A stretch of DNA of 64,000 nt. It comes from Dehalococcoidia bacterium (GTDB lineage: Bacteria > Chloroflexota > Dehalococcoidia > Lucifugimonadales > SHYT01). The DNA is taken from contig SHYA01000006.1 in assembly GCA_009693055.1 (NCBI GenBank), positions 24,272 through 88,271 of the forward strand, given 5' to 3'. The notes below the pieces were generated by a model. The model was given only the letters and a program-made list of their open reading frames with translations. It was not told the DNA's origin and did no database searches. Shown here in pieces: positions 215-58,664 of this stretch (positions are counted from its first letter, which is position 1; each line of letters starts with the position of its first letter). A program made the position numbers and the translations under genes.

Positions 215-856
215 CTATTCAAAGAAGCGGACTCGTCCGCCACTTAGAAGGTGAGAATACTTGCTGCGAAAATTCTCTTGATCTAATGGCAGTAGCCCAG
301 CCGCCGCTCGGACTTCATTGAAGACTTGTCGGTTTATTTCCATCCAGCCATCATGTGTCAGGCCAACTTTTTTGATCAGGTCATTAAGGCTCTGTGCCGC
401 TCGGCTGATTGCCACACGCTCAGGTCCGTCAAGGCGCGTTGTGTCCACGGCCAAGGCTGGGTTCTGTACCCACGAAGTAAACCCCTCGTATTGCAAATCC
501 GCCCTCTGTAGTATCAGATGGATCAGGGACGCGACCTCGTCGTAGGGTTGCCTAATGTTTTCAGTTGCTAGTTGGCTCACCTGTCCATGCTGCTCTTTCA
601 TCGAACGAATTATTCCGATTTTTCTTTCCAGGGCGGGAATCACGTACTGAGAGACGAGAGCGGGACTGAAGAGGGTCGCCTGCGGCCGCCCGAATGCCTC
701 ACCCGAGGGCGGCAAGGCACCCGATGCCAAGGCAAAGGCGTCGTTGTAGAATTCCATGGGAAGCTGCTGGTAGGCAAGCATCTTCTGGGGGTGCCGGATA
801 AGCAGTATTGCAGCGTCTTTTTCGGCTGTCCGTAGCGACTTAGAGAACCATGGCAT
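215..856 (-). CDS. hypothetical protein (orphan, predicted mostly helical)
   Basis: The ORF track gives 215..874 from a TTG. The ATG at 856 is preceded by GGAGGG 6 nt upstream. No family recognised. The region looks lower in G+C than its surroundings and abuts tRNA-Gln. Confidence 0.55.
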   Translation of the reverse strand: MPWFSKSLRTAEKDAAILLIRHPQKMLAYQQLPMEFYNDAFALASGALPPSGEAFGRPQATLFSPALVSQYVIPALERKIGIIRSMKEQHGQVSQLATENIRQPYDEVASLIHLILQRADLQYEGFTSWVQNPALAVDTTRLDGPERVAISRAAQSLNDLIKKVGLTHDGWMEINRQVFNEVRAAAGLLPLDQENFRSKYSHLLSGGRVRFFE

Positions 857-3165: not shown

Positions 3166-3618
3166 CTAAGAGGCGGCTCGCTTGGGGCGCCGCGCAACGG
3201 TGGAGCAGGCGGCACATGTGCCGGTGACCGTAAAGTGGTCCAGGTTGGGGGTGAAGTCAAAGGTCTGCCGCAGCCTGGTGCGGAACTCCTCCAGGTACTC
3301 AGGGCTCAGGTCAAACGTCCCGCCGCACTGCTCGCAGACCATGTGGTGGTGATGCGCACCCGCGGGGGCCATCTCGTAATGAAGCCGGTCGCCAAGGCCC
3401 ACCTCGGTAACGACGTTGAGGCGCTTGAAGAGCTGGAGCGTCCGGTACACCGTGGCGATGTCCAGGTACGGGTACGCGCGCTTGGCCTTCTGGTAAAGTG
3501 CCTCGACGCTGACATGCCCTGGAGAATCGGCGATGGTCTGGAGGACGAGCAGGCGCTGTGGCGTGAGGCGGACACCTGCCGTTCTCAGATCGTCCAGGAT
3601 GTGCTCGTGGTGCGCCAT
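3166..3618 (-). CDS. zur: Fur-family metalloregulator (probable Zur)
   Basis: Winged-helix N-terminus (LTPQRLLVLQ), an HHHHMVCEQCG motif and a C-terminal CAAC (two CxxC pairs). Last gene of the metal ABC operon. Confidence 0.75.
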   Translation of the reverse strand: MAHHEHILDDLRTAGVRLTPQRLLVLQTIADSPGHVSVEALYQKAKRAYPYLDIATVYRTLQLFKRLNVVTEVGLGDRLHYEMAPAGAHHHHMVCEQCGGTFDLSPEYLEEFRTRLRQTFDFTPNLDHFTVTGTCAACSTVARRPKRAAS

Positions 3619-3669
3619 CGTTCACCTCGGAGGTGCCCCGTTCCATGGTGCAGGGAACGGCGCGCTGCG

Positions 3670-4536
3670 TCAACCGGTGTCCGAACGAGGTGCTTGGGGC
3701 GCGGTGGGTGTGGCAGCACTCTTGCCGCGCAGCGTACGTGCGGCGACCCGGAAGGCCACCGCCGCAATGAGCAGCGCGACCGCGGACAGCACAATGACTC
3801 CGCCCGGCGAAACGTCCTGGTAGAACGAGATGGTCAGGCCGATGAAGACGCTGGCCAGGCCCACGAGGGCCGAGCCGAGGAGCGTAGTGCGGAACCCCGT
3901 CCGCATCTGCAGCGCCGCGATGGTCGGAAAGACGACGAGCGCGCCGACGAGTAAAGCCCCTGTGGCCCGCATGGCAAGCGTAACGGTAACGCCCGTGAGC
4001 ACCGCCAGCACGATGTTGACCCGCCCGACGGGAACACCACTGACCCGCGCGAGGACCGGGTCAAACGTGGACTGGACGAGCTCGGTGTAGAGGAAGCTCA
4101 CGAGCAGCATCACGCCGATTCCGAGGCTGCCGATCGTCCAGACGTCGGCTGTGCTGATGGTCGCGATGCTGCCGAACAGGTAGCCGAAGAGGTCAATGTT
4201 GAGGCCGTCGCCAAGGCTGATGAGCACGATGGCGACCGCCAGCGCGGTGTAGAGCACCAGGGCCAGCGCGCTGTCGTCCGCGAGGAGGCGTGTGGCGCGC
4301 AGCCGCTCCAGGACGAGCGCGGCGACGGCGGAGACCATGACGGCGACACCGAGCGGCGCCCAGTTCAGCAGGAGGCCGATGGCCGCGCCCATGAGCGCCA
4401 CGTGGGCCAGCGTGTCCGCGATGAGCGAAAGCCGCCGCAGCACCAGAAACGCGCCAAGAAACGGGCAGACCAGGCCAACGATGCCCCCCGCGATGAACGC
4501 GCGCACCATGAAGCTGTACTGAAAGATCTCTGGCAT
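3670..4536 (-). CDS. znuB: metal (Zn/Mn-type) ABC transporter permease, ABC-3 family
   Basis: Polytopic membrane protein resembling the ZnuB/MntB/TroCD family. ATG at 4536; the alternative TTG at 4560 is the ORF-track start. Confidence 0.75.
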   Translation of the reverse strand: MPEIFQYSFMVRAFIAGGIVGLVCPFLGAFLVLRRLSLIADTLAHVALMGAAIGLLLNWAPLGVAVMVSAVAALVLERLRATRLLADDSALALVLYTALAVAIVLISLGDGLNIDLFGYLFGSIATISTADVWTIGSLGIGVMLLVSFLYTELVQSTFDPVLARVSGVPVGRVNIVLAVLTGVTVTLAMRATGALLVGALVVFPTIAALQMRTGFRTTLLGSALVGLASVFIGLTISFYQDVSPGGVIVLSAVALLIAAVAFRVAARTLRGKSAATPTAPQAPRSDTG

Positions 4537-6944: not shown

Positions 6945-7021
6945 GGCGCATTCGTCTAGTGGCCAAGGACGCGTCCCTCTCAAGGACGAGATCAGGGGTT
7001 CGAATCCCCTATGCGCCACCA
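6945..7021 (+). tRNA. tRNA-Glu (anticodon CTC)
   Basis: Acceptor GGCGCAT/ATGCGCC; anticodon stem CGTCC/GGACG with loop CTCTCAA; T arm AGGGG-TTCGAAT-CCCCT; discriminator A; encoded CCA. Total 77 nt. Confidence 0.9.
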
Positions 7022-7753: not shown

Positions 7754-8665
7754 CTAGGACGGCTGCAACCGCATCGCTGCTGCGCGGGCGGCCGCGAGAA
7801 TCCGGGCGACGTAGCCAGGCCGGCGCCGCACCGTCGGCCGCTCACCAAGCGGAGAGCGCAGCCACAAGAGCGCGACCTCGTGGTCGGACAGGCCGGCGTC
7901 CATGAACTTGTTCACCGCGAACCAGTCCGCCTCCGTGCGGGAGGTGAACCCCTGGGACGTGGGGTCGCCGAGCACAGCCTGGAGGCGCATGAACTGGTTG
8001 GAGTGGAGCACTTGCAACGCCTTCTGCAAGGCGGCCTCCTCAAGCTCCGCCGTGTCCCCGTTCGGCGGCAGCGCTGGGAAAGCTGCGGACGAGCGGAACG
8101 GCTCAATCGGCACGCCAAACCGCTCAAGGAGGCCCGTCAGCCACGCCTGGAGGTCGTCAACCGGAAGAGGGGGCTTGCTGTTCAACGCCTGGTACGGCCG
8201 TCCCGCCAGTGTGGACCCCGGCGCTACCACGTAGCCCCCAAGCCCGTGCAGAGAGCCGATCGCCGCGCCGTTTCGCGTGCTGAGGGTGCAGCCCGGCTCC
8301 GCGCCGTCCTCCTCCTGAACGTAGAGGTGCACGCCGTTGCGTCCAGGTGAGGCGACCATGAAGAGCGTTGTGAGCAGGTGGGCGTCTTTCGCCAGGCGCT
8401 CCGCGAGCTGGGCGTTGTTGATGTTGACCACCGTGACGGGGCCGCAGGCGACCCCCCAGTTGGCGTCCGGCCATTGCGAGCGCCAGGTGTCTAGCTGCCT
8501 TGGGTCGTTGCTGGCGTCCTTAACACCCTGTGCGGAGAGGGGGGCTTTGCCGGCATCGTTTGGCGCGTGCCCACTGCCGCAAGCGCAGCCGCCGCGGGCG
8601 TCCGTCCAGCACAGGGGGAGCGTGCGCCACCCCTGGCCAAGAACCCAGTGTCCTGCACAGGCCAT
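7754..8665 (-). CDS. bifunctional DNA primase/polymerase (PrimPol) N-terminal domain-like protein, probably catalytically inactive
   Basis: Family-like pattern: GW..LPL...C.C......AGKAPL..GVKDASNDP.QL..W....PDANWGVA.G, then GVHLYV. The position where the family has (L/V)(D)(V/I)(D) reads VVNINN. Good SD (GGAGGGG) before the ATG at 8665. Confidence 0.6.
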   Translation of the reverse strand: MACAGHWVLGQGWRTLPLCWTDARGGCACGSGHAPNDAGKAPLSAQGVKDASNDPRQLDTWRSQWPDANWGVACGPVTVVNINNAQLAERLAKDAHLLTTLFMVASPGRNGVHLYVQEEDGAEPGCTLSTRNGAAIGSLHGLGGYVVAPGSTLAGRPYQALNSKPPLPVDDLQAWLTGLLERFGVPIEPFRSSAAFPALPPNGDTAELEEAALQKALQVLHSNQFMRLQAVLGDPTSQGFTSRTEADWFAVNKFMDAGLSDHEVALLWLRSPLGERPTVRRRPGYVARILAAARAAAMRLQPS

Positions 8666-8775
8666 TGCCCCTCCACACCCGCGAAGAAGTTGCTACGAAA
8701 GATGTGTGTGACCGACAGTTCGCCCCCGACAGTTCCCGCTGCCGGGGGCGAACGTGAAGACTGCTGAACAGTAGC

Positions 8776-24179: not shown

Positions 24180-24308
24180 TCACGCCGCTTCCCCAGCAGC
24201 ATGCGCCCGATCGCGAAAGCGGCCGGGCGTTTTTGTTGGCAGGAGACAAGGAGAGCCTGGTGAGGAGAACGCTCCTCCACCAGGCTCTCAACGGGCGGTG
24301 TGTTGCGG

Positions 24309-25493
24309 CTAGCCGGCGGTATAGGCCTTGCGCAGCACCTCGGCCACCTCGGGGCGGCTCATCTCAGGGGGCAGCTTCTCCCCCTTGCTCAGCAGGTCTC
24401 GAACCTGGGTGCCGCTTAGGGAGAGCCGCTTGCTCGCGTCGTGCGGGCACGTCTTTTCCGTGGCCATGCCGGCGCACGCCGTGCAGTAGAAGGAGTTGTC
24501 GAAGAACAACGGTTGGATGCCCAGCTCCTGCGAGGTGAACTCTTGGAAGATGTGCTGGGCGTCGTAGGTGCCGTAGTAGCGGCCCACGCCGGCGTGGTCC
24601 CGCCCCACGATGAAGTGGGTGCAGCCGTAGTTCTTGCGCGCCATGGCGTGGAACACCGCCTCCCGAGGCCCGGCGTAGCGCATGAAGGCCGGGTAGATGG
24701 CGAGCGTGACCCGGCTGGCGGGGTAATACTTCTCCAGCAGCACCTGGTAGCACTCCATCCGGATGCTGCCGGGGATGTCATCGCCCTTGGTATCGCCAAC
24801 TAGGGGGTGGAGGAGCAGCCCGTCCACGATCTCCATGGCGCACTTCTGGATGTACTCGTGCGCCCGGTGGACGGGGTTGCGCGTCTGGAATCCCACGACG
24901 GTGCGCCACCCCTTCTGCTGGAAGAGTTGGCGGGACTGCGCGGGGGACATGAAGAACGCCTCGTAACCCTGGGGAGGGGCCAGCGGCCCCAGCAGAGAGA
25001 TTTTGCCTCCGAGCAGCAGGTCGCCCTGCGCGTACAGGTTCGCGACGCCCGCGTGCTTCTCCTCCTCGGTGCGATAGACGAGCCGGGCCTCTGCACGTTT
25101 GTCATACTCATAGACCTCTTGAAGGTCCAGAGCGCCCACCAGGGCCCCCTGCGGGTCTTTGAGGGCTACCCGACCGCTGGCCCGGAACGCGCTCCTTTTC
25201 TCCGTGGGGATGGAGAGCGTTACCGGCACCGACCACACGGCGCCCGACGCGAGGCGCATGTCTTTCACGACGGACTTGTAGTCCGCGGAGCCGAGGAAGC
25301 CTTCCAGGGGGCTGAACGCTCCCTGGGCGATGAGCTGCGCATCCGAGAGCTCTCTGGCGCTGAGCGTCAAGGAGGGCAGGCCGGGCGCTTCAGCACGGAG
25401 GGCGGCGGCGGCCTGTCCCTCTAAGAGCCGTTGGACCAGCTTGCCGCCGTGAGGAGCACTGAGGGACGGTGTTGCTGAGGCCTTAACGACCAT
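24309..25493 (-). CDS. sat: sulfate adenylyltransferase (ATP sulfurylase)
   Basis: [11 protein letters not shown] and GRDHAG motifs of homo-oligomeric ATP sulfurylase. Overlaps the cysC stop. Confidence 0.9.
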
Positions 25494-26055
25494 GGCTACC
25501 CGCCGGCACGTGGCTAAGGTAGCCCAGTTCCTTTAGCTTGCTGAGGACCTTGTTGACGCTCTCCTCTACGGTCTCCCGCGAGGAGTCCACGACGACCTCC
25601 GGGTTGTCCGGCGGCTCGTACGGGTCGGAGACGCCGGTGAAGTTCTTGATCTCGCCCGCGATGGCCTTCTTGTAGAGCCCTTTCACATCCCGCTGAATGA
25701 GGACTTCCATCGGCGCTTGGACGTACACTTCCGCGAAGTTGCCGATCTCTTTGCGCACCTCGTTGCGGATCTCTTTGTAGGGCGAGATGGCCGCGGAGAT
25801 GACCATGACGCCGTTGCGGGTCAGGAGCTGGCAGACGAAGCCGATGCGCCGGATGTTGGTGTCCCGGTCCTCCTTGCTAAAGCCCAGGCCCTTGCTCAGG
25901 TTGGTGCGGACCACGTCGCCGTCCAGCACTTCAACCTTGCGGCCCTGGGCGCGGAGGATCTTCTCAAGCTGGTTGGCGATGGTGGACTTGCCGGCCCCAG
26001 ACAGGCCGGTGAACCAGATGGTGACGCCTTGGGATTCCCGTCCGCTTGTGCTCAT
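25483..26055 (-). CDS. cysC: adenylylsulfate (APS) kinase
   Basis: [14 protein letters not shown]-loop, LDGD, and [16 protein letters not shown] are typical of CysC. ATGA overlap with cysH. Confidence 0.9.
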
Positions 26056-26804
26056 CGAGGTGTGTTCTGCTCCTTCTTGGCGCCCGCGGCCTCCACTTTA
26101 GCGTCGGGCACGTGAATACCGCACTCGGTCTTGTTGAAGCCGGTCCACCGGCCGGCGCGTTCGTCCTCGCCCGCCTTGACCGGGCGCGTGCAGTGGGTGC
26201 AGCCGATGCTGGGGTAGCCACGGGCGTGGAGGGCGTTGACGGGCACGTTGTTGGCCGCGATGTACTCCTTGACCTGTTTGCTGGCCCACAGGGCCATGGG
26301 GTTCAGCTTGACCACCTCGTACTTGCTGTCCCACTCCACCAGGGGCGTCGCAGCGCGCGTGGAGCCCTGGTCACGGCGCAGGCCGCTGATCCAGGCGCGG
26401 TTGCCTTCCAGGGCGCGGCCCGTCGGTTCCACCTTGCGCAGCCAGCAGCACCGGTCAGGGTCCTTGGACCAGAGCGCTTCACCAAACTCCTTTGCCTGCT
26501 GCTCCGGCGTCCAGCGCGACTTGTACCCGACGGGGTTGATGCCGTAGCGGTGCTTGACGGTCTCGATAAGCTCGTGCGTTTCCGAGAAGAGGAAGTCGGT
26601 GTCGGTATAGAAGACGCGCACGCCGGGGTTGACCTTCGCCGCCATGTCCAGCATGGCCATCCCGGTGATGCCGCCGAAGCTGCACGCCATGACGACCTTG
26701 TCGCCGAACTCCTGGAAGCCCCAGGCAAGTACCTCCTGGGGGTCTTTGCCCTCCAGTTGGCGCTGCCACTCGGGGACTTGTGTTTCGTCTTGCGCTGTGG
26801 CCAC
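26052..26804 (-). CDS. cysH: (phospho)adenosine phosphosulfate reductase, Fe-S (APS-reductase) type
   Basis: PAPS_reduct fold with the C-terminal ECGIH motif, plus Cys pairs CC (DRCCWLRK) and CxxC (GCTHCT) that mark the 4Fe-4S APS-reductase subgroup. GTG at 26804 with a GGAGG SD; alternative GTG at 26834. Confidence 0.85.
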
Positions 26805-26821
26805 AGGGCCTCCTTGGCGGA

Positions 26822-28624
26822 CTAGATTGCGCACTCGCCCTCACCGCGCTGTACCTTATACAGCACGGAGCGGCCGTAGTCGATGTACAGGTCAATCGTC
26901 TGGCGGTTGATCTTGGGTACGTCCGCGAGAGGCGCGAGGAGCTGGTCCACATGCTCCGCGCCGACGCGGTCAACCCAGTCGTTGAAGGGCTCGTTGTCGC
27001 GACGCTCCTTGACGTAGCGCTCCGTGATGGTGCTGATAGCCTGGGGCACTCGTTTGGACGGTACCCTGGTCTTGAGGCGATAGCCGACGCGGATGGGTGG
27101 GACAAGGCTTCCGGCCACGTACACCTCGTACGCGGGGATCTGGCCGCTTTCGTTGCGCATGGCGGCGCCTTGGAAACCGAGGTTTCCAAGGTGGTGCTGC
27201 CCGCAGCCGTCAGGGCACCCCGAGATGTTGATGCGCATCGCCCTCACCAGCGGGTCCGTGACCTTCAGCCCCTTCACGTAGTCGGTCAGGTAAGCGCCCA
27301 TAAGCGTGGAGGCGGTTATGCCCAGGGAGCAGCTCTCGGTGCCAGGGCAGGAGACCACGTCCACCAGTCCGTTGGCCCCCGACTCCGCAAGGTCTAGGGC
27401 CTTAAGGGCCTGGTAGAGCCCGTACTGGTGCTCGTTGCGCACCCAGCGGACGGCCAGGTTCTGGCGCTGGGTGATGCGCAGCGACGGCCCTTCGCCAACA
27501 AAGTCGCGGGCGATCTTCGCGAGGCCGAAGAACTGGTCCCCCGTCAGGTTGCCCATGCGAATGCGGATGGTTGCCACTCCGTACCCGGGCTGTTTCTGGG
27601 GGACGACGTTCGACTGTTTCCACTCGGTAAAGGCCGCATCGTTGCCGGGGTCCGCCACGGGTGTCCTGACCGGCAGCGCAGCCGGGAAATCCGAAGCCTC
27701 GTCGTCCATGGCGCCCAGGGTGTCAAGGTCAAACGTCTTCTTCGCCCAGTCGCCCTTTAGCTCCTCCTCCACCATCTTCCGGAAGGCGTCCATGCCGATC
27801 CGGTCCACCAGGACCTTGATGCGCGCCTTCATCCGGTTCTTGCGCAGGTCTTCCTGACGGTTGTACACGCGGACCACGGCCTCGGACACGCGGAGGAAGT
27901 CTTCCACGGGGACGAACTCGTAGAGGGTGGGCGCCATGCGGGGCATGATGGAGAGGCCGCCGCCGACGACCATCTTGAACCCCTTCCGGCCGTCCCGGGT
28001 TCGCGCAACGAAGCCGATGTCGTGCATGGGCGTGATGGCGCAGTCCGACTCGCAGCCGGAGAAGGAGGGCTTGAACTTGCGCGGCATGTTCTGGGTGACC
28101 GGATGGCGCACCAGGAACCGCGCAAAGGCCGCTGCGTAGGGTGTCACGTCAAAGGGTTCGCTGGCGCAGACCCCCTGGAGCGGGCAGCCCGTGATGTTGC
28201 GGATCGTGTTGCCGCACGCCTCGCGAGACGTCAGCCCCACCTCGCCGAGGATGCGCATCGCCTCTGCGGAGTCTTCCAGCTTGAGGAAGTGGAGCTGGAC
28301 GTTTTCGCGGGTTGTCAGGTGGCCTCGGCCGGTCTCCGTGAAGTCCTTGGCGAGGCGCCCTATGGCCTCAAGTTGGGCCGGCGTGAGGCGGCCAAACGGG
28401 ATCTTGATGCGGAACATCTGCACGCCCGGCTGACGCTGCCCGTACACGCCCTGCCGCAGCCGGAAGGCGCGGTACTGGGTGGCGTCCGCCCCGTCGCTGA
28501 GGAATTGCCGGGTGCGTTTCTCAAAGTAGTCTATCTCCTCGGGCAGGTACGGGATAACCGGTACGGCCCCTTTATGGCCGTTCGCTTTATGGGCCTGCTG
28601 AGAGGGTGCTTTGGCGGCACTCAT
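26822..28624 (-). CDS. sir: assimilatory sulfite (or nitrite) reductase, ferredoxin-type siroheme/4Fe-4S hemoprotein
   Basis: Two NIR_SIR ferredoxin-like and 4Fe-4S/siroheme domains (TSREACGNTIRNITGCP..., SGCPDGCGQHH). ATG at 28624 with a GGAGG SD. The track ORF start at 28783 would read through a terminator hairpin. Confidence 0.85.
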   Translation of the reverse strand: MSAAKAPSQQAHKANGHKGAVPVIPYLPEEIDYFEKRTRQFLSDGADATQYRAFRLRQGVYGQRQPGVQMFRIKIPFGRLTPAQLEAIGRLAKDFTETGRGHLTTRENVQLHFLKLEDSAEAMRILGEVGLTSREACGNTIRNITGCPLQGVCASEPFDVTPYAAAFARFLVRHPVTQNMPRKFKPSFSGCESDCAITPMHDIGFVARTRDGRKGFKMVVGGGLSIMPRMAPTLYEFVPVEDFLRVSEAVVRVYNRQEDLRKNRMKARIKVLVDRIGMDAFRKMVEEELKGDWAKKTFDLDTLGAMDDEASDFPAALPVRTPVADPGNDAAFTEWKQSNVVPQKQPGYGVATIRIRMGNLTGDQFFGLAKIARDFVGEGPSLRITQRQNLAVRWVRNEHQYGLYQALKALDLAESGANGLVDVVSCPGTESCSLGITASTLMGAYLTDYVKGLKVTDPLVRAMRINISGCPDGCGQHHLGNLGFQGAAMRNESGQIPAYEVYVAGSLVPPIRVGYRLKTRVPSKRVPQAISTITERYVKERRDNEPFNDWVDRVGAEHVDQLLAPLADVPKINRQTIDLYIDYGRSVLYKVQRGEGECAI

Positions 28625-28755
28625 TCTGGCCTCCGGCTTCCCGTCGCAAAGGGCGCTCTCGGCGCGGCATGCGCAGCGCAAGCCCTCACGCCGTTCAGGG
28701 TGAGTGTGCTTACCAGGTGCTGGAAGGACTGCTTCATGAAATCCCCGTCTTGTGC

Positions 28756-28796
28756 AATAAAAAAGCCCCGTTCTGGCTCTCACACAGAACGGGGCC
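28756..28796 (-). terminator. intrinsic terminator inside the sir leader (attenuator candidate)
   Basis: Minus strand: GCCCCGTTCTG - tgtgagagc - CAGAACGGGGC followed by TTTTTT. It lies about 135 nt upstream of the sir ATG and 25 nt downstream of the leader ORF stop. Confidence 0.7.
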
Positions 28797-28820
28797 TAGC
28801 GCTCTCACGAGTGCTTGCCC

Positions 28821-28859
28821 CTACGTGCAGCAGCAGTTAATCCGGTACCCGTCTGACAT
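28821..28859 (-). CDS. candidate leader peptide MSDGYRINCCCT (three consecutive Cys codons)
   Basis: ATG lies 11 nt after the -10 box. 12 codons with TGC TGC TGC at codons 9-11, then a TAG stop. A terminator follows. Confidence 0.5.
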   Translation of the reverse strand: MSDGYRINCCCT

Positions 28860-28870
28860 AAGTAAGGTTT

Positions 28871-28898
28871 ATTATAGATGGCTTGCTCACCGTGTCAA
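28871..28898 (-). promoter_or_regulatory. sigma-70-type promoter of the sulfate-assimilation operon
   Basis: Minus strand: TTGACA (28898-28893), 16-nt spacer, TATAAT (28876-28871). Both hexamers are consensus. Confidence 0.65.
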
Positions 28899-28948
28899 GG
28901 TGCGGCGCAGCCTGCTCTTCCGTCCTGTTCGGCGTTCGCTAGGCTACA

Positions 28949-29677
28949 ATGGCAGCGATGGCGGAGCAGGATTTAGCCGAGCGTCTGGGCGGCCGTGTCG
29001 GTGCGGTCCTGGTGGCCGCAGGCGGGAGCCGCCGCATGGGTGGCGTGGACAAGGTCTTCGCCCCCGTGCTGGGCCAGCCGCTCGTGTCGTGCAGCCTGGA
29101 TGTCCTGGAGGCGTGCCCGATGGTTGACGAGATCGTCCTGGTCTTGAGCACGGACAACCTTGCCCTGGGACGCGAGCTTGTGAAGACGGGTGGTTGGCGC
29201 AAGGTCCGCCAGGTTTGCCAGGGAGGTGAGCGGCGGCGGGACTCAGTGCAGCGTGGCCTGGACGCCCTCGTTGAGGTCAAGTGGGTGGTGGTCCATGACG
29301 CCGCCCGGCCGTGTGTGACCGCGGATATGCTCGTCCGGGGGCTTGAGGCTGCGCTGGAGACCGGGGCGGCCATCGCGGCCGTGCCGGTCGCGGACACCAT
29401 TAAGGTCGTCGGCGCGGACGGGGTTATCACGGCGACGCCGGCCCGCTCAGAGCTGTGGGCGGCGCAGACGCCCCAGGTGTTCTTGCGTGAGCTTCTGGTG
29501 CGCGCTCATCAGGCGGGCGACGCGGATGCCACCGACGACAGCGTGTTGGTGGAGCGGTTGGGCAGTCCGGTCAGGGTTTTTGAGGGCTCCGTTATGAACG
29601 TGAAGGTCACCACGCCAAGCGACCTGCTGGTTGCGGAGGCGTTCCTCCGGGCGCAGCGGGCCACGGGAGGCCGGTAA
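28949..29677 (+). CDS. ispD: 2-C-methyl-D-erythritol 4-phosphate cytidylyltransferase
   Basis: VLVAAGGSRRMG...DKVF and VVHDAARP motifs. An alternative ATG at 28958 sits just after a TACAAT box, so a leaderless start is possible. Confidence 0.85.
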   Translation: MAAMAEQDLAERLGGRVGAVLVAAGGSRRMGGVDKVFAPVLGQPLVSCSLDVLEACPMVDEIVLVLSTDNLALGRELVKTGGWRKVRQVCQGGERRRDSVQRGLDALVEVKWVVVHDAARPCVTADMLVRGLEAALETGAAIAAVPVADTIKVVGADGVITATPARSELWAAQTPQVFLRELLVRAHQAGDADATDDSVLVERLGSPVRVFEGSVMNVKVTTPSDLLVAEAFLRAQRATGGR

Positions 29678-29678
29678 C

Positions 29679-30155
29679 GTGCGCGTCGGCATCGGCTTTG
29701 ACGTTCACCCCCTCGTGACGGGGCGCCCGCTGGTCCTGGGCGGCGTCACCGTTCCGTTCGCCAAGGGCCTGCACGGCCACAGCGATGGCGACGTGCTCGT
29801 GCACGCCATCATTGACGCGCTGCTGGGTGCGGCTTCTCTGGGGGGCATCGGCGACCACTTCCCATCGAGCGACGAGCAGCTCCGAGGGATCAGCAGCCTG
29901 GTGCTGCTGGAGCGCACCAACGACCTCTTGCGACACCGCGGGTGGGTAGTGCACAATACCGACGCGACAATCGTGGCGCAGGCGCCGGTGTTGAAGCCTT
30001 ATCTGGGCCCCATGCAAAAGGCCATCGCGGCGCACCTGGGGGTGCAGCCCGAGCAGGTGAGCATCAAGGCCAAGACAACGGACGGTCTTGGGTTCACCGG
30101 CCGGGGCGAAGGCATCGCCGCCATGGCGGTCGCCACCCTCGACGCCGCGCCATGA
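29679..30155 (+). CDS. ispF: 2-C-methyl-D-erythritol 2,4-cyclodiphosphate synthase
   Basis: VGIGFDVHPL...HSDGDVLVHA...GDHFPS motifs. GTG at 29679 lies 1 nt after the ispD stop; the track ORF starts at 29631. Confidence 0.9.
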   Translation: MRVGIGFDVHPLVTGRPLVLGGVTVPFAKGLHGHSDGDVLVHAIIDALLGAASLGGIGDHFPSSDEQLRGISSLVLLERTNDLLRHRGWVVHNTDATIVAQAPVLKPYLGPMQKAIAAHLGVQPEQVSIKAKTTDGLGFTGRGEGIAAMAVATLDAAP

Positions 30156-30174
30156 GCCTGCGAAGCGAGTAGCG

Positions 30175-31563
<1,389 letters not shown>

Positions 31564-50730: not shown

Positions 50731-50826
50731 TGGCGGGAGCGGGAGGGAGTCGAACCCACCTGTCCCGACACGTCGGGACACGCCGGTTTTGAAGACCGGG
50801 AGAGCCACCGGGCCCCATCCACCCCC
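50731..50826 (-). tRNA. selC: tRNA-Sec (selC), anticodon TCA
   Basis: Minus strand, 96 nt. 8-bp acceptor stem GGGGGTGG/CCGCTCCC (2 G-U pairs). 6-bp D stem GGGGCC/GGCTCT with 4-nt loop CGGT. Anticodon stem CCGGT/ACCGG with loop CTTCAAA. Long variable arm (TGTCCCGA cgtg TCGGGACA). T loop TTCGACT. Discriminator G and CCA. Confidence 0.85.
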
Positions 50827-51450: not shown

Positions 51451-51471
51451 GGGACTGACGTCAATCAAGAC

Positions 51472-51606
<135 letters not shown>

Positions 51607-58334: not shown

Positions 58335-58482
58335 AAAACAATGAGCCGCCCGCCAGAGGCGGACGGCTCCAAAAAGAGACTACCAACCGCATCCCTCCGC
58401 TGGCATTACCCAGTTCAGGTTGTTGGGGTCGTCCCGCTCGTTGGGACCTCTCAGTCCGGCTATCCCGGACTCCCCCTCGGCC
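58335..58482 (-). promoter_or_regulatory. second TPP (THI-box) riboswitch with terminator
   Basis: Minus strand: GGACTGAGAGG ... AACCTGAACTGGGTAATGCCAGCGGAGGGA. Then GAGCCGTCCGCC tctg GCGGGCGGCTC plus ATTGTTTTGT. A candidate promoter, TTGACA (58536-58531) - 17 nt - TAAGCT (58513-58508), lies upstream. Confidence 0.85.
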
Positions 58483-58664
58483 TTGCATGGCTTGGTAAGG
58501 TAGTTTCAGCTTATCGCGGCGCTGCGCGCCTGTCAACGAAGCGGGGCAACTCTCTGAAAAGGTGCGGATGGAACACAAGCCGTTCCCCGCGCGGCGACGT
58601 TATAGTAGAGAGGCGTTGTCGTTAGGAAAGCGCGCCGAGAGCGAGACTGTATGAGGCCCATCGT

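Follow-up and report, generated by a model that had tools for sequence, protein, structure and literature searches.

Sensing of cysteine through Cys codons in a leader open reading frame (ORF) is already known: it was predicted for Actinobacteria in 2005, and its demonstration in Mycobacterium smegmatis followed in 2020. The predicted actinobacterial ORFs carry a run of Cys codons near the stop codon and lie upstream of cys/cbs operons; no conserved terminator hairpins were found there, and Rho-dependent termination was suggested (Seliverstov et al. 2005, PMC1262725). In M. smegmatis, leaderless polycysteine small ORFs (sORFs) are cysteine-responsive attenuators (Canestrari et al. 2020, bioRxiv 10.1101/834739 / Mol Microbiol 114:93), and the locus dissected in that study is controlled at the level of translation, in that the poly-Cys tract forms a long and stable duplex with the downstream Shine-Dalgarno (SD) sequence, no terminator being involved (10.1101/834739). 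According to the same authors, attenuation for cysteine mediated by an upstream ORF had not been described previously (10.1101/834739), and a paper from 2026 still refers to the mycobacterial polycysteine sORFs as translation attenuation (PMC13236596). Full-text literature searches for terminator-based Cys attenuators or for Cys leader peptides in Chloroflexi returned nothing else, and Cys leader peptides with terminators go unmentioned in a survey of premature terminators. The element described here heads the sulfate-assimilation operon sir-cysH-cysC-sat of a Dehalococcoidia bacterium (phylum Chloroflexota) represented by metagenome-type sequence only, and lies in a stretch of 64,000 nucleotides (GenBank assembly GCA_009693055.1, contig SHYA01000006.1, positions 24,272 to 88,271), the whole of which is termed the window and is numbered from its first letter. 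On the evidence of sequence comparison it is a real, conserved cis-regulatory element, in which an ORF with tandem Cys codons is followed by a canonical intrinsic terminator, and quite probably it acts as a Cys-tRNA-sensing, ribosome-mediated transcription attenuator of the operon. What is new is the coupling to such a terminator and the occurrence in Chloroflexota; no new principle is involved, and the family appears to be the first of terminator-based cysteine attenuators.

A sequence-only reading of the window had placed a promoter, a leader ORF with a Cys run and a terminator on the minus strand ahead of the operon, and each of these features lies exactly where it had been put (Table 1); Pfam likewise identifies all four of the genes named for the operon. 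The promoter scores 12/12 to consensus and is the sole such match across the 8 kb scanned. Considering both strands of the window, the leader ORF (ATG TCA GAC GGG TAC CGG ATT AAC TGC TGC TGC ACG TAG) is the sole ORF of up to 40 codons in which three Cys codons follow each other, and no other CC-containing ORF of that size stands behind a promoter scoring at least 9/12. Initiation had been called leaderless-type; hardly any 5' untranslated region (UTR) is predicted, and a very short leader without an SD sequence is the better description. A folding energy of -45.6 kcal/mol is predicted for the leader RNA (z = -3.15 relative to shuffled sequences). No known riboswitch core had been recognised in it by eye, in agreement with which no Rfam family matches the leader, either in a whole-window scan at gathering thresholds or in a permissive scan of the region at E <= 10, where the best matches within 28000-29600 reach 13-19 bits against gathering scores of 39-59.

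The same module stands at the head of a sulfur operon in 14 further Dehalococcoidia/Chloroflexota loci, whose Sir proteins are 56-73% identical to that of the window. The 15 leaders (the window, L001-L011, L014, L068 and L108, the last cut by a contig end) share one order of parts: TTGACA, a spacer of 16-18 nt, a TAnnnT hexamer, an ATG without an SD sequence, the Cys-run ORF, a stop codon beside a GGGG block, a hairpin termed P1 and the terminator. In all 14 members having upstream sequence TTGACA is present, the -10 hexamer (TAGACT, TATGGT, TATCTT, TATCGT or TAAGAT in homologues) ends 7-13 nt ahead of the ATG, and no SD-like motif is found between the two; from this distance a 5' UTR of roughly 0-6 nt is predicted. 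A covariance model (R1) that spans 84 positions from the Cys codons to the U-tract retrieves exactly the 15 leaders at E <= 1.4e-6, and a search with it of related loci (93 sources, 0.75 Mb) gave no members outside the training set and nothing stronger than E = 0.03. A metagenome scan added one close relative with the leader, the truncated L108, plus several distant lineages. Since unconstrained intergenic DNA is randomised at 56-73% Sir identity, this degree of conservation implies strong purifying selection on the leader, and the expectation that a short Cys-run ORF and a terminator would recur upstream of sir/cysH orthologues met with a strongly positive result. In L068 the module lies 1.9 kb upstream of sir, which is the second gene of its operon behind a gene for a PF03601 (YeiH-like) membrane protein. 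The element thus tracks the start of the transcription unit and not sir itself.

Throughout the family the leader ORF evolves like a coding sequence, and it would accordingly be expected to be translated. It comprises 11-16 codons, of which a run of two to five Cys codons (CC to CCCCC) is kept in 15/15 leaders; the alignment shows conservation of the ATG, the Cys run and the stop region, with no other residue kept. The Cys codons alternate between TGC and TGT at nearly every position and are never TGA or TGG, and indels in the body of the ORF measure 3, 6 or 9 nt. Three single-base indels (columns 40 and 45 of alignment A1) are located just before the stop codon, where their effect is a change of the stop used. 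In L009 and L011 such indels near the 3' end move the ORF to the next stop, two codons downstream, and in L010, where the TAG has been replaced, the ORF extends as far as the following in-frame stop; at the RNA level the GGGG block stays in place in each of these three loci despite the shifted stop.

A peptide-coding unit with a promoter and a terminator of its own could also be a separate small gene, for a Cys-rich micropeptide with a metal or redox function or for a small RNA of ~100 nt, without cis-control of sir. The transcription unit is indeed complete, its promoter is strong, and trans action is known for terminated attenuator RNAs and for leader peptides, as in the case of rnTrpL/peTrpL. 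However, Met and the Cys run are the sole conserved residues of a product that ranges from 11 to 16 aa, and the unit is always co-oriented with, and directly upstream of, sulfur-assimilation genes, even where the first gene is a different one (L068). Moreover, a consensus scan found no second consensus promoter between the unit and sir in the window, and the geometry of stop codon, GGGG and terminator would be left without a role. We regard a separate gene as unlikely on these grounds, and a trans function may exist on top of cis attenuation.

The specificity of the association for cysteine was assessed in 126 related loci (853 kb, both strands) by a scan for ATG ORFs of 6-30 codons that contain a run XXX of one residue and are followed by a hairpin and a T-run within 110 nt. 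Cys, one of the rarest residues, came out on top with 13 matches, followed by Ser with 9 and every other residue with at most 2. All Cys matches lie on the sir strand and upstream of sir, and so do all 16 matches to CC runs in the same control. An ORF encoding KCCCIIR in L003/L004 was discarded because a 230-aa gene runs antisense to it. Since short ORFs and hairpins occur commonly in GC-rich DNA, the two might come to stand next to a promoter-like site in intergenic DNA by chance; such an origin is refuted by the recurrence of the architecture in 15 loci at 56-73% Sir identity, by its uniqueness in 64 kb and by the strong Cys enrichment and strand bias, and its probability is negligible.

The hairpin and the T6 tract constitute a predicted intrinsic terminator which is both conserved and covarying. 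In the window it folds at -24.4 kcal/mol on its own and is situated 135 nt before the ATG of sir; an automated terminator scan missed it because its loop has 9 nt against an allowed maximum of 8. With the exception of L002, every leader carries a hairpin rich in GC that starts 49-58 nt past the stop codon and runs into T6 or TTTTGTTTT. In a model-based alignment of the 15 leaders, 96% of the cells of the nine-pair stem hold standard pairs, and compensatory double changes such as G-C to U-A or U-A to C-G occur in four of the nine pairs. Neither the covariation score nor the paired fraction was reached in any of 500 column shuffles (0/500), a shift of the 3' partner by a single column halved the pairing, and a MAFFT alignment gave the same picture of the terminator.

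These observations bear on the possibility that the Cys-run ORF senses Cys-tRNA but acts as in mycobacteria, so that the hairpin and U-tract would not be the regulated step. The only experimentally characterised Cys leader ORF works in this manner (10.1101/834739), and in L003-L014 the SD sequence of sir is just ~10-20 nt past the U-tract. In the window, however, where GGAGG precedes the sir ATG at 28624, the SD sequence is ~125-130 nt past the terminator and the RNA between is no more structured than shuffled sequences (z = +0.65). No pairing of the Cys tract with the SD sequence is predicted in any fold, and the canonical GC-rich hairpin, the U-run and the compensatory changes found in all leaders but the degenerate L002 would go unexplained. 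Translational control of this type is therefore improbable here. Sequestration of the SD sequence was also considered and was rejected since the RNA after the terminator is unstructured.

Transcription attenuation requires a second fold that competes with the terminator, for which the sequence-only reading had offered two partners of the terminator 5' arm. One of them, GGGGC, had been described as lying directly 3' of the stop codon; the element exists, is conserved and would act together with P1, but it includes the G of TAG and thus runs from 28821 to 28817. The other, CAGACGGG (codons 2-4), is not conserved. Despite a duplex energy with the 5' arm near that of GGGGC (-10.2 vs -10.6) it was rejected, because its alignment columns are unconserved and because a ribosome stalled at codon 9 would cover the site. 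That GGGGC, P1 and GCCCC together form the antiterminator is considered moderately likely.

The GGGG block is present in 14 of the 15 leaders, at -4 to +2 nt from the stop codon, 14-21 nt from the first Cys codon and 8-17 nt from the last. From these distances it follows that a ribosome stalled at the first Cys codon would leave GGGG free whereas a terminating ribosome would bury it; in the window a stall at the second Cys codon likewise leaves it free. Thirteen leaders were folded under two masks. In the first mask the first Cys codon occupied the A site, the RNA was hidden as far as 11 nt beyond the first base of that codon, and the terminator 3' arm was untranscribed; the minimum free energy structure then contains a GGGG(C/U):(G)CCCC helix closing P1 in 12/13 leaders, and with the ribosome placed at the stop codon the terminator alone forms, so that folding under a masked ribosome yields the expected switch in those 12. 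In the window the predicted energies are -18.7 kcal/mol for the antiterminator stem-loop and -24.4 kcal/mol for the terminator. Stepwise folding of the window leader lets the antiterminator appear once CCCC has been made and keeps it as the optimum until the last GGGGC of the 3' arm. Across the family, the CCCC/GGGG part of the terminator stem, which the proposed antiterminator also uses, does not vary, whereas the upper stem covaries, and this difference is suggestive.

A hairpin at the P1 position is found in 15/15 leaders, with at least six unrelated stem sequences of 4-9 bp, and beats shuffled sequences in eight leaders (p <= 0.02). A single P1 register across clades was not obtained with MAFFT or with a covariance model, and P1 was therefore assessed from folds of the individual sequences. 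Conservation of the GGGG and CCCC blocks and of the position of P1 at the RNA level would also be expected if a ligand or protein bound to this region, as a small riboswitch or the target of an RNA-binding regulator, and controlled the terminator with the short ORF being incidental; riboswitches or T-boxes control sulfur genes in other systems. However, no Rfam match was obtained even at E <= 10, the stems and loops of P1 are wholly different between clades and, at 4-9 bp, present no conserved pocket. The fixed ATG, the open frame, the indels in multiples of three, the synonymous variation of the Cys codons and the placement of the stop would all be unexplained, which makes this proposal very unlikely.

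Several observations weigh against attenuation by the proposed switch. The columns of the antiterminator are invariant (95.7% of the cells of the GGGGC:GCCCC helix are paired, with no change on both sides), hence covariation neither supports nor contradicts the helix, and the case for it consists of conservation, predicted thermodynamics and geometry. Just 5 bp long, the helix is less stable than the terminator, for which reason the decision between the two must be kinetic. In the clade of L006-L014, P1 is a weak 4-bp helix that is no better than shuffled sequences. A conserved pause or anti-antiterminator hairpin of the 1:2 type was not found in the coding part, the RNAalifold consensus of 13 leaders being the terminator only; a 5' hairpin seen in the window fold is not conserved in the family. 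Free of ribosomes, the RNA would favour the antiterminator first, so that the default may be read-through, unlike trp. Finally, L002 has both a degenerate GGGG (GAGG) and a degenerate terminator, and the element is absent from the other Chloroflexota sir loci L012, L059, L074-76 and L103.

Taken with these reservations, attenuation by a translating ribosome, as had been proposed from the sequence of the window, is supported by conservation in 14 further loci, by the coding-type evolution of the ORF and by the compensatory changes in the terminator. In the proposed mechanism, a strong and probably constitutive promoter would produce an mRNA opening with the 12-codon ORF within a few nt of its 5' end, onto which a ribosome would load without an SD sequence. 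When Cys-tRNA(Cys) is plentiful, this ribosome would pass the three Cys codons and reach TAG, covering GGGGC (28821-28817) and part of P1. GCCCC would then be left to pair with the terminator 3' arm, and the 11-bp hairpin with U6 would stop the polymerase 135 nt before sir. When Cys-tRNA(Cys) is scarce, the ribosome would stall with its A site on the first or second Cys codon, from which GGGG is 14 or 11 nt further downstream, and the exposed GGGGC could pair with GCCCC as soon as this is transcribed, closing P1 into the stem-loop of -18.7 kcal/mol. In this way the base of the terminator stem would be held by the antiterminator and blocked beside the U-tract, allowing read-through into sir-cysH-cysC-sat, and termination would respond to cysteine.

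Table 1. Positions of the leader, its predicted structures and the genes around it in the window, with leader peptides and Cys-rich ORFs of the related loci.
Feature	Locus	Position	Strand	Description
-35 hexamer TTGACA	window	28893-28898	(-)	sequence reading and consensus scan
-10 hexamer TATAAT	window	28871-28876	(-)	16-nt spacer; ends 11 nt before ATG
Leader ORF, peptide MSDGYRINCCCT	window	28821-28859	(-)	12 codons + TAG; ATG at 28859, stop 28823-28821
Tandem Cys codons TGC TGC TGC	window	28827-28835	(-)	codons 9-11; proposed sensing site; sequence reading
GGGGC, proposed antiterminator 5' strand	window	28817-28821	(-)	first G is last base of TAG
P1 hairpin AGC.CTC / GAG.GCT, loop GTGA	window	28798-28815	(-)	folds; enclosed by proposed antiterminator helix
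GCCCC, proposed antiterminator 3' strand	window	28791-28795	(-)	first 5 nt of terminator 5' arm; complementary to GGGGC
Predicted terminator hairpin	window	28765-28795	(-)	GCCCCGTTCTG (28795-28785) / CAGAACGGGGC (28775-28765); 11 bp, 9-nt loop TGTGAGAGC; 25 nt past stop
T6 tract	window	28759-28764	(-)	sequence reading; T6 or TTTTGTTTT in homologues
sir-cysH-cysC-sat operon	window	24309-28624	(-)	proposed target of leader control; Pfam and ORF coordinates
sir	window	28624-26822	(-)	Pfam NIR_SIR 1e-56; first gene of operon
cysH	window	26834-26052	(-)	Pfam PAPS_reduct 1e-47
cysC	window	26055-25483	(-)	Pfam APS_kinase 6e-65
sat	window	25493-24309	(-)	Pfam ATP-sulfurylase 2e-97; last gene of operon
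ispD	window	28949-29677	(+)	divergent neighbour of leader
cysS (cysteinyl-tRNA synthetase)	window	30088-31563	(+)	downstream of ispD
Second small ORF (ORF2), MKQSFQHLVSTLTLNGVRACAAHAAPRAPFATGSRRPE	window	28620-28736	(-)	38 codons; TGA overlaps sir ATG
Leader peptide MVTRRQSDICCCT	L001
Leader peptide MISRTCVCCGT	L002
Leader peptide MLNRH(T/S)AFCCCCCT	L003/L004
Leader peptide MSINYSFNCCCSL	L005
Leader peptide MVTVSFNNGCCRPA	L006
Leader peptide MVTILSNNGCCRPA	L007
Leader peptide MVNVSVNNGCCRPA	L008
Leader peptide MVTVLVNNCCCRLHTG	L009
Leader peptide MMTLHNTVCCCRPTMG	L010
Leader peptide MVTAPVNNCCRRLHTG	L011
Leader peptide MLTIPVNICCCRPA	L014
Leader peptide MLTRHSVNCCCT	L068	2023-2130		leader
Cys-rich counterpart of ORF2	L001	~3605-3817
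Cys-rich counterpart of ORF2	L002	3621-3821
Cys-rich counterpart of ORF2	L108	~107-300
~60-aa ORF (MPATTPVIHHESHSHEADL...VPVEL...)	L001	3777-3971		between ORF2 and sir
~60-aa ORF	L108	~278-470		between ORF2 and sir
~60-aa ORF	L002	within 3652-3954		between ORF2 and sir
Post-sat Cys-rich ORF MKATGRSTATTQNNGLCTACRCCCAPPEGCA	L001	8569-8664		hairpin ~8710-8735
Post-sat Cys-rich ORF MAREACFCCCTTSCLPERCTR	L002	8474-8537		hairpin 8564-8598; next gene SBP_bac_11 (sulfate-binding-like)
Cys-rich ORF MCCCCAMCCCMPP...	L034	3395-3475		Anaerolineaceae metagenome-assembled genome
Cys-rich ORF MCCTCIC(S/T)CAHALPASACS...	L092	768-848		soil metagenome
Same soil-metagenome ORF	L093	404-484
Same soil-metagenome ORF	L113	988-1068
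Same soil-metagenome ORF	L119	621-701
Same soil-metagenome ORF	L125	1047-1127
NC10 mini-ORF	L027	3592-3618
NC10 mini-ORF	L029	3535-3561
NC10 mini-ORF	L085	2035-2061
NC10 mini-ORF	L086	979-1008
NC10 mini-ORF	L087	2030-2059
NC10 mini-ORF	L100	146-172

The nearest Sir proteins, from a search of 185,579 species genomes, belong to metagenome-assembled genomes (MAGs) of Dehalococcoidia. Identity to the Sir protein of the window is 73% for L001 and 70% for L002, both from deep Lake Baikal, and 56-59% for about a dozen more Dehalococcoidia/Chloroflexota MAGs, after which come Solirubrobacterales at ~45%. On this ranking an uncultured member of the class Dehalococcoidia would be the most likely source of the window. 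The gene for cysteinyl-tRNA synthetase, cysS, is located only ~1.2 kb from the Cys leader. Right after the stop codon of sat there is a long near-perfect hairpin without a U-tract (GAGAGCCTGGTGGAGGAG / CTCCTCACCAGGCTCTC, 24251-24289, minus strand), which is probably a structure of the operon 3' end; the region past sat contains just this hairpin, and no other Cys leaders were found in the 64-kb window. Elsewhere in the window, Rfam matches at 50731-50826 (minus strand), 51463-51574 (plus strand) and 58374-58486 (minus strand) correspond to a selenocysteine tRNA gene and two thiamine pyrophosphate (TPP) riboswitches, the latter with bit scores of 56.8 and 64.1 that exceed the gathering score. 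Genes for tRNA-Gln and tRNA-Glu are present at 86-159 and 6945-7021.

Between the terminator and sir the window contains a second small ORF (ORF2, Table 1). In its 5' half it can be aligned with a longer ORF of L001, L108 and L002 which encodes ..GACFCTCRCTCSEQGCCACS.. (..GACFCTC(R/A)C..GCC(A/I)CS..), and in these relatives a further ORF of ~60 aa is situated between ORF2 and sir; both the ~60-aa ORF and the Cys-rich part of ORF2 are absent from the window. The small peptides of ORF2 and of this third ORF gave no Pfam matches. Judged from the alignment, the ORF2 of the window is a probable remnant of the Cys-rich ORF of its closest relatives, and its overlap with the sir start makes translational coupling to sir possible. 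In the relatives, the Cys-rich ORF2 could be a second Cys-sensing ORF or encode a small metal or redox peptide.

A further Cys-rich ORF with a GC hairpin, unrelated in sequence to the leader, occurs right after sat in L001 and L002 and has no counterpart in the window. The lone weak match of model R1 pointed to this kind of feature, namely a second Cys-rich ORF in L002. The gene that follows it in L002 belongs to SBP_bac_11, a family that includes sulfate-binding proteins. This arrangement suggests that L001 and L002 may each possess several units controlled by Cys leaders.

Unrelated Cys-rich ORFs with strong terminator hairpins were also observed upstream of sir in an Anaerolineaceae MAG and in a lineage from soil metagenomes, and on their sequences these look like convergent architectures. 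In NC10/Methylomirabilota, an SD-led mini-ORF encoding MTGICC(C)RL or MMSMCCCL precedes a DUF2292 gene and sir and is followed by a U-rich tract; no convincing terminator hairpin could be assigned in these NC10 leaders. The collected cases suggest that Cys-codon sensing leaders may be more widespread than the literature indicates. As a more tentative proposal, which may well fail, a 'Cys ribulon' could exist outside Actinobacteria in which stalling on SD-less 5'-terminal mini-ORFs is combined with intrinsic terminators in several uncultured lineages. If true, this would imply repeated independent invention, and a variant of attenuation without a 1:2 hairpin that reads through by default when the leader is untranslated.

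If the attenuator functions as proposed, it would extend the sensing of cysteine by ribosomes to the phylum Chloroflexota, in which hardly any gene regulation has been characterised, and provide a testable handle on the control of sulfate assimilation in the abundant uncultured Dehalococcoidia of freshwater and groundwater. The very short leader without an SD sequence would also be a compact natural test case for the coupling of a first ribosome, loaded at the 5' end, to RNA polymerase. For the annotation of the element in MAGs, the 84-position covariance model could serve.

Compared with systems which sense the pool of sulfur amino acids in Firmicutes, the leader would share with S-box (SAM-I) riboswitches and Cys T-boxes the principle of premature intrinsic termination that is relieved when the pool is low. 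S-box and T-box leaders sense S-adenosylmethionine (SAM) or uncharged tRNA by means of large structured RNAs, whereas no such aptamer is present here, only ~25 nt separate the ORF from the terminator, and the proposed sensor is the translating ribosome. The resemblance to the mycobacterial sORFs (Ms5788A and five other loci) lies in the sensing part: cysteine and sulfur operons open with a very short ORF that is placed, here by prediction, right at the 5' end of the mRNA, at least two consecutive Cys codons stand near its end, and ribosomes are proposed to pause on them. Several such loci occur per mycobacterial genome, and L001 and L002 similarly have a second Cys-rich ORF with a hairpin. The mycobacterial mRNAs are leaderless and start at the start codon; for the present family a 5' UTR of roughly 0-6 nt is predicted. 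However, the Chloroflexota leaders have a canonical terminator and no SD pairing, show no sequence similarity to the mycobacterial ones and belong to a different phylum; from the actinobacterial leaders predicted by Seliverstov and co-workers they differ in their conserved, covarying intrinsic terminator.

The classical attenuators (trpL of E. coli and those of his, leu, thr, ilv and phe) are the closest match in the regulatory part. As in these, tandem regulatory codons lie in a short leader ORF behind an apparently constitutive promoter, the stop codon closely precedes the 5' strand of the proposed antiterminator, the first structural gene stands behind a GC-rich intrinsic terminator and its U-tract, and the predicted antiterminator is less stable than the terminator with which it shares the 5' arm. 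For E. coli trpL, both the spacing and the relation of a weaker antiterminator to a stronger terminator closely parallel those of this leader. The differences concern the regulator, which would be cysteine; the leader ORF, which has no SD sequence and begins a few nt from the predicted 5' end; the absence of a conserved region 1 or 1:2 hairpin; the proposed antiterminator, a 5-bp helix closing the separate hairpin P1; and the host, a member of Chloroflexota, with no sequence homology to the leader families of Rfam. A conserved Cys-codon leader coupled to a covarying intrinsic terminator would fill the cysteine gap among leader-peptide attenuators, and by analogy with the described systems these leaders may be understood as a family, unrelated to them in sequence, that combines action of the trp type with Cys sensing of the mycobacterial type.

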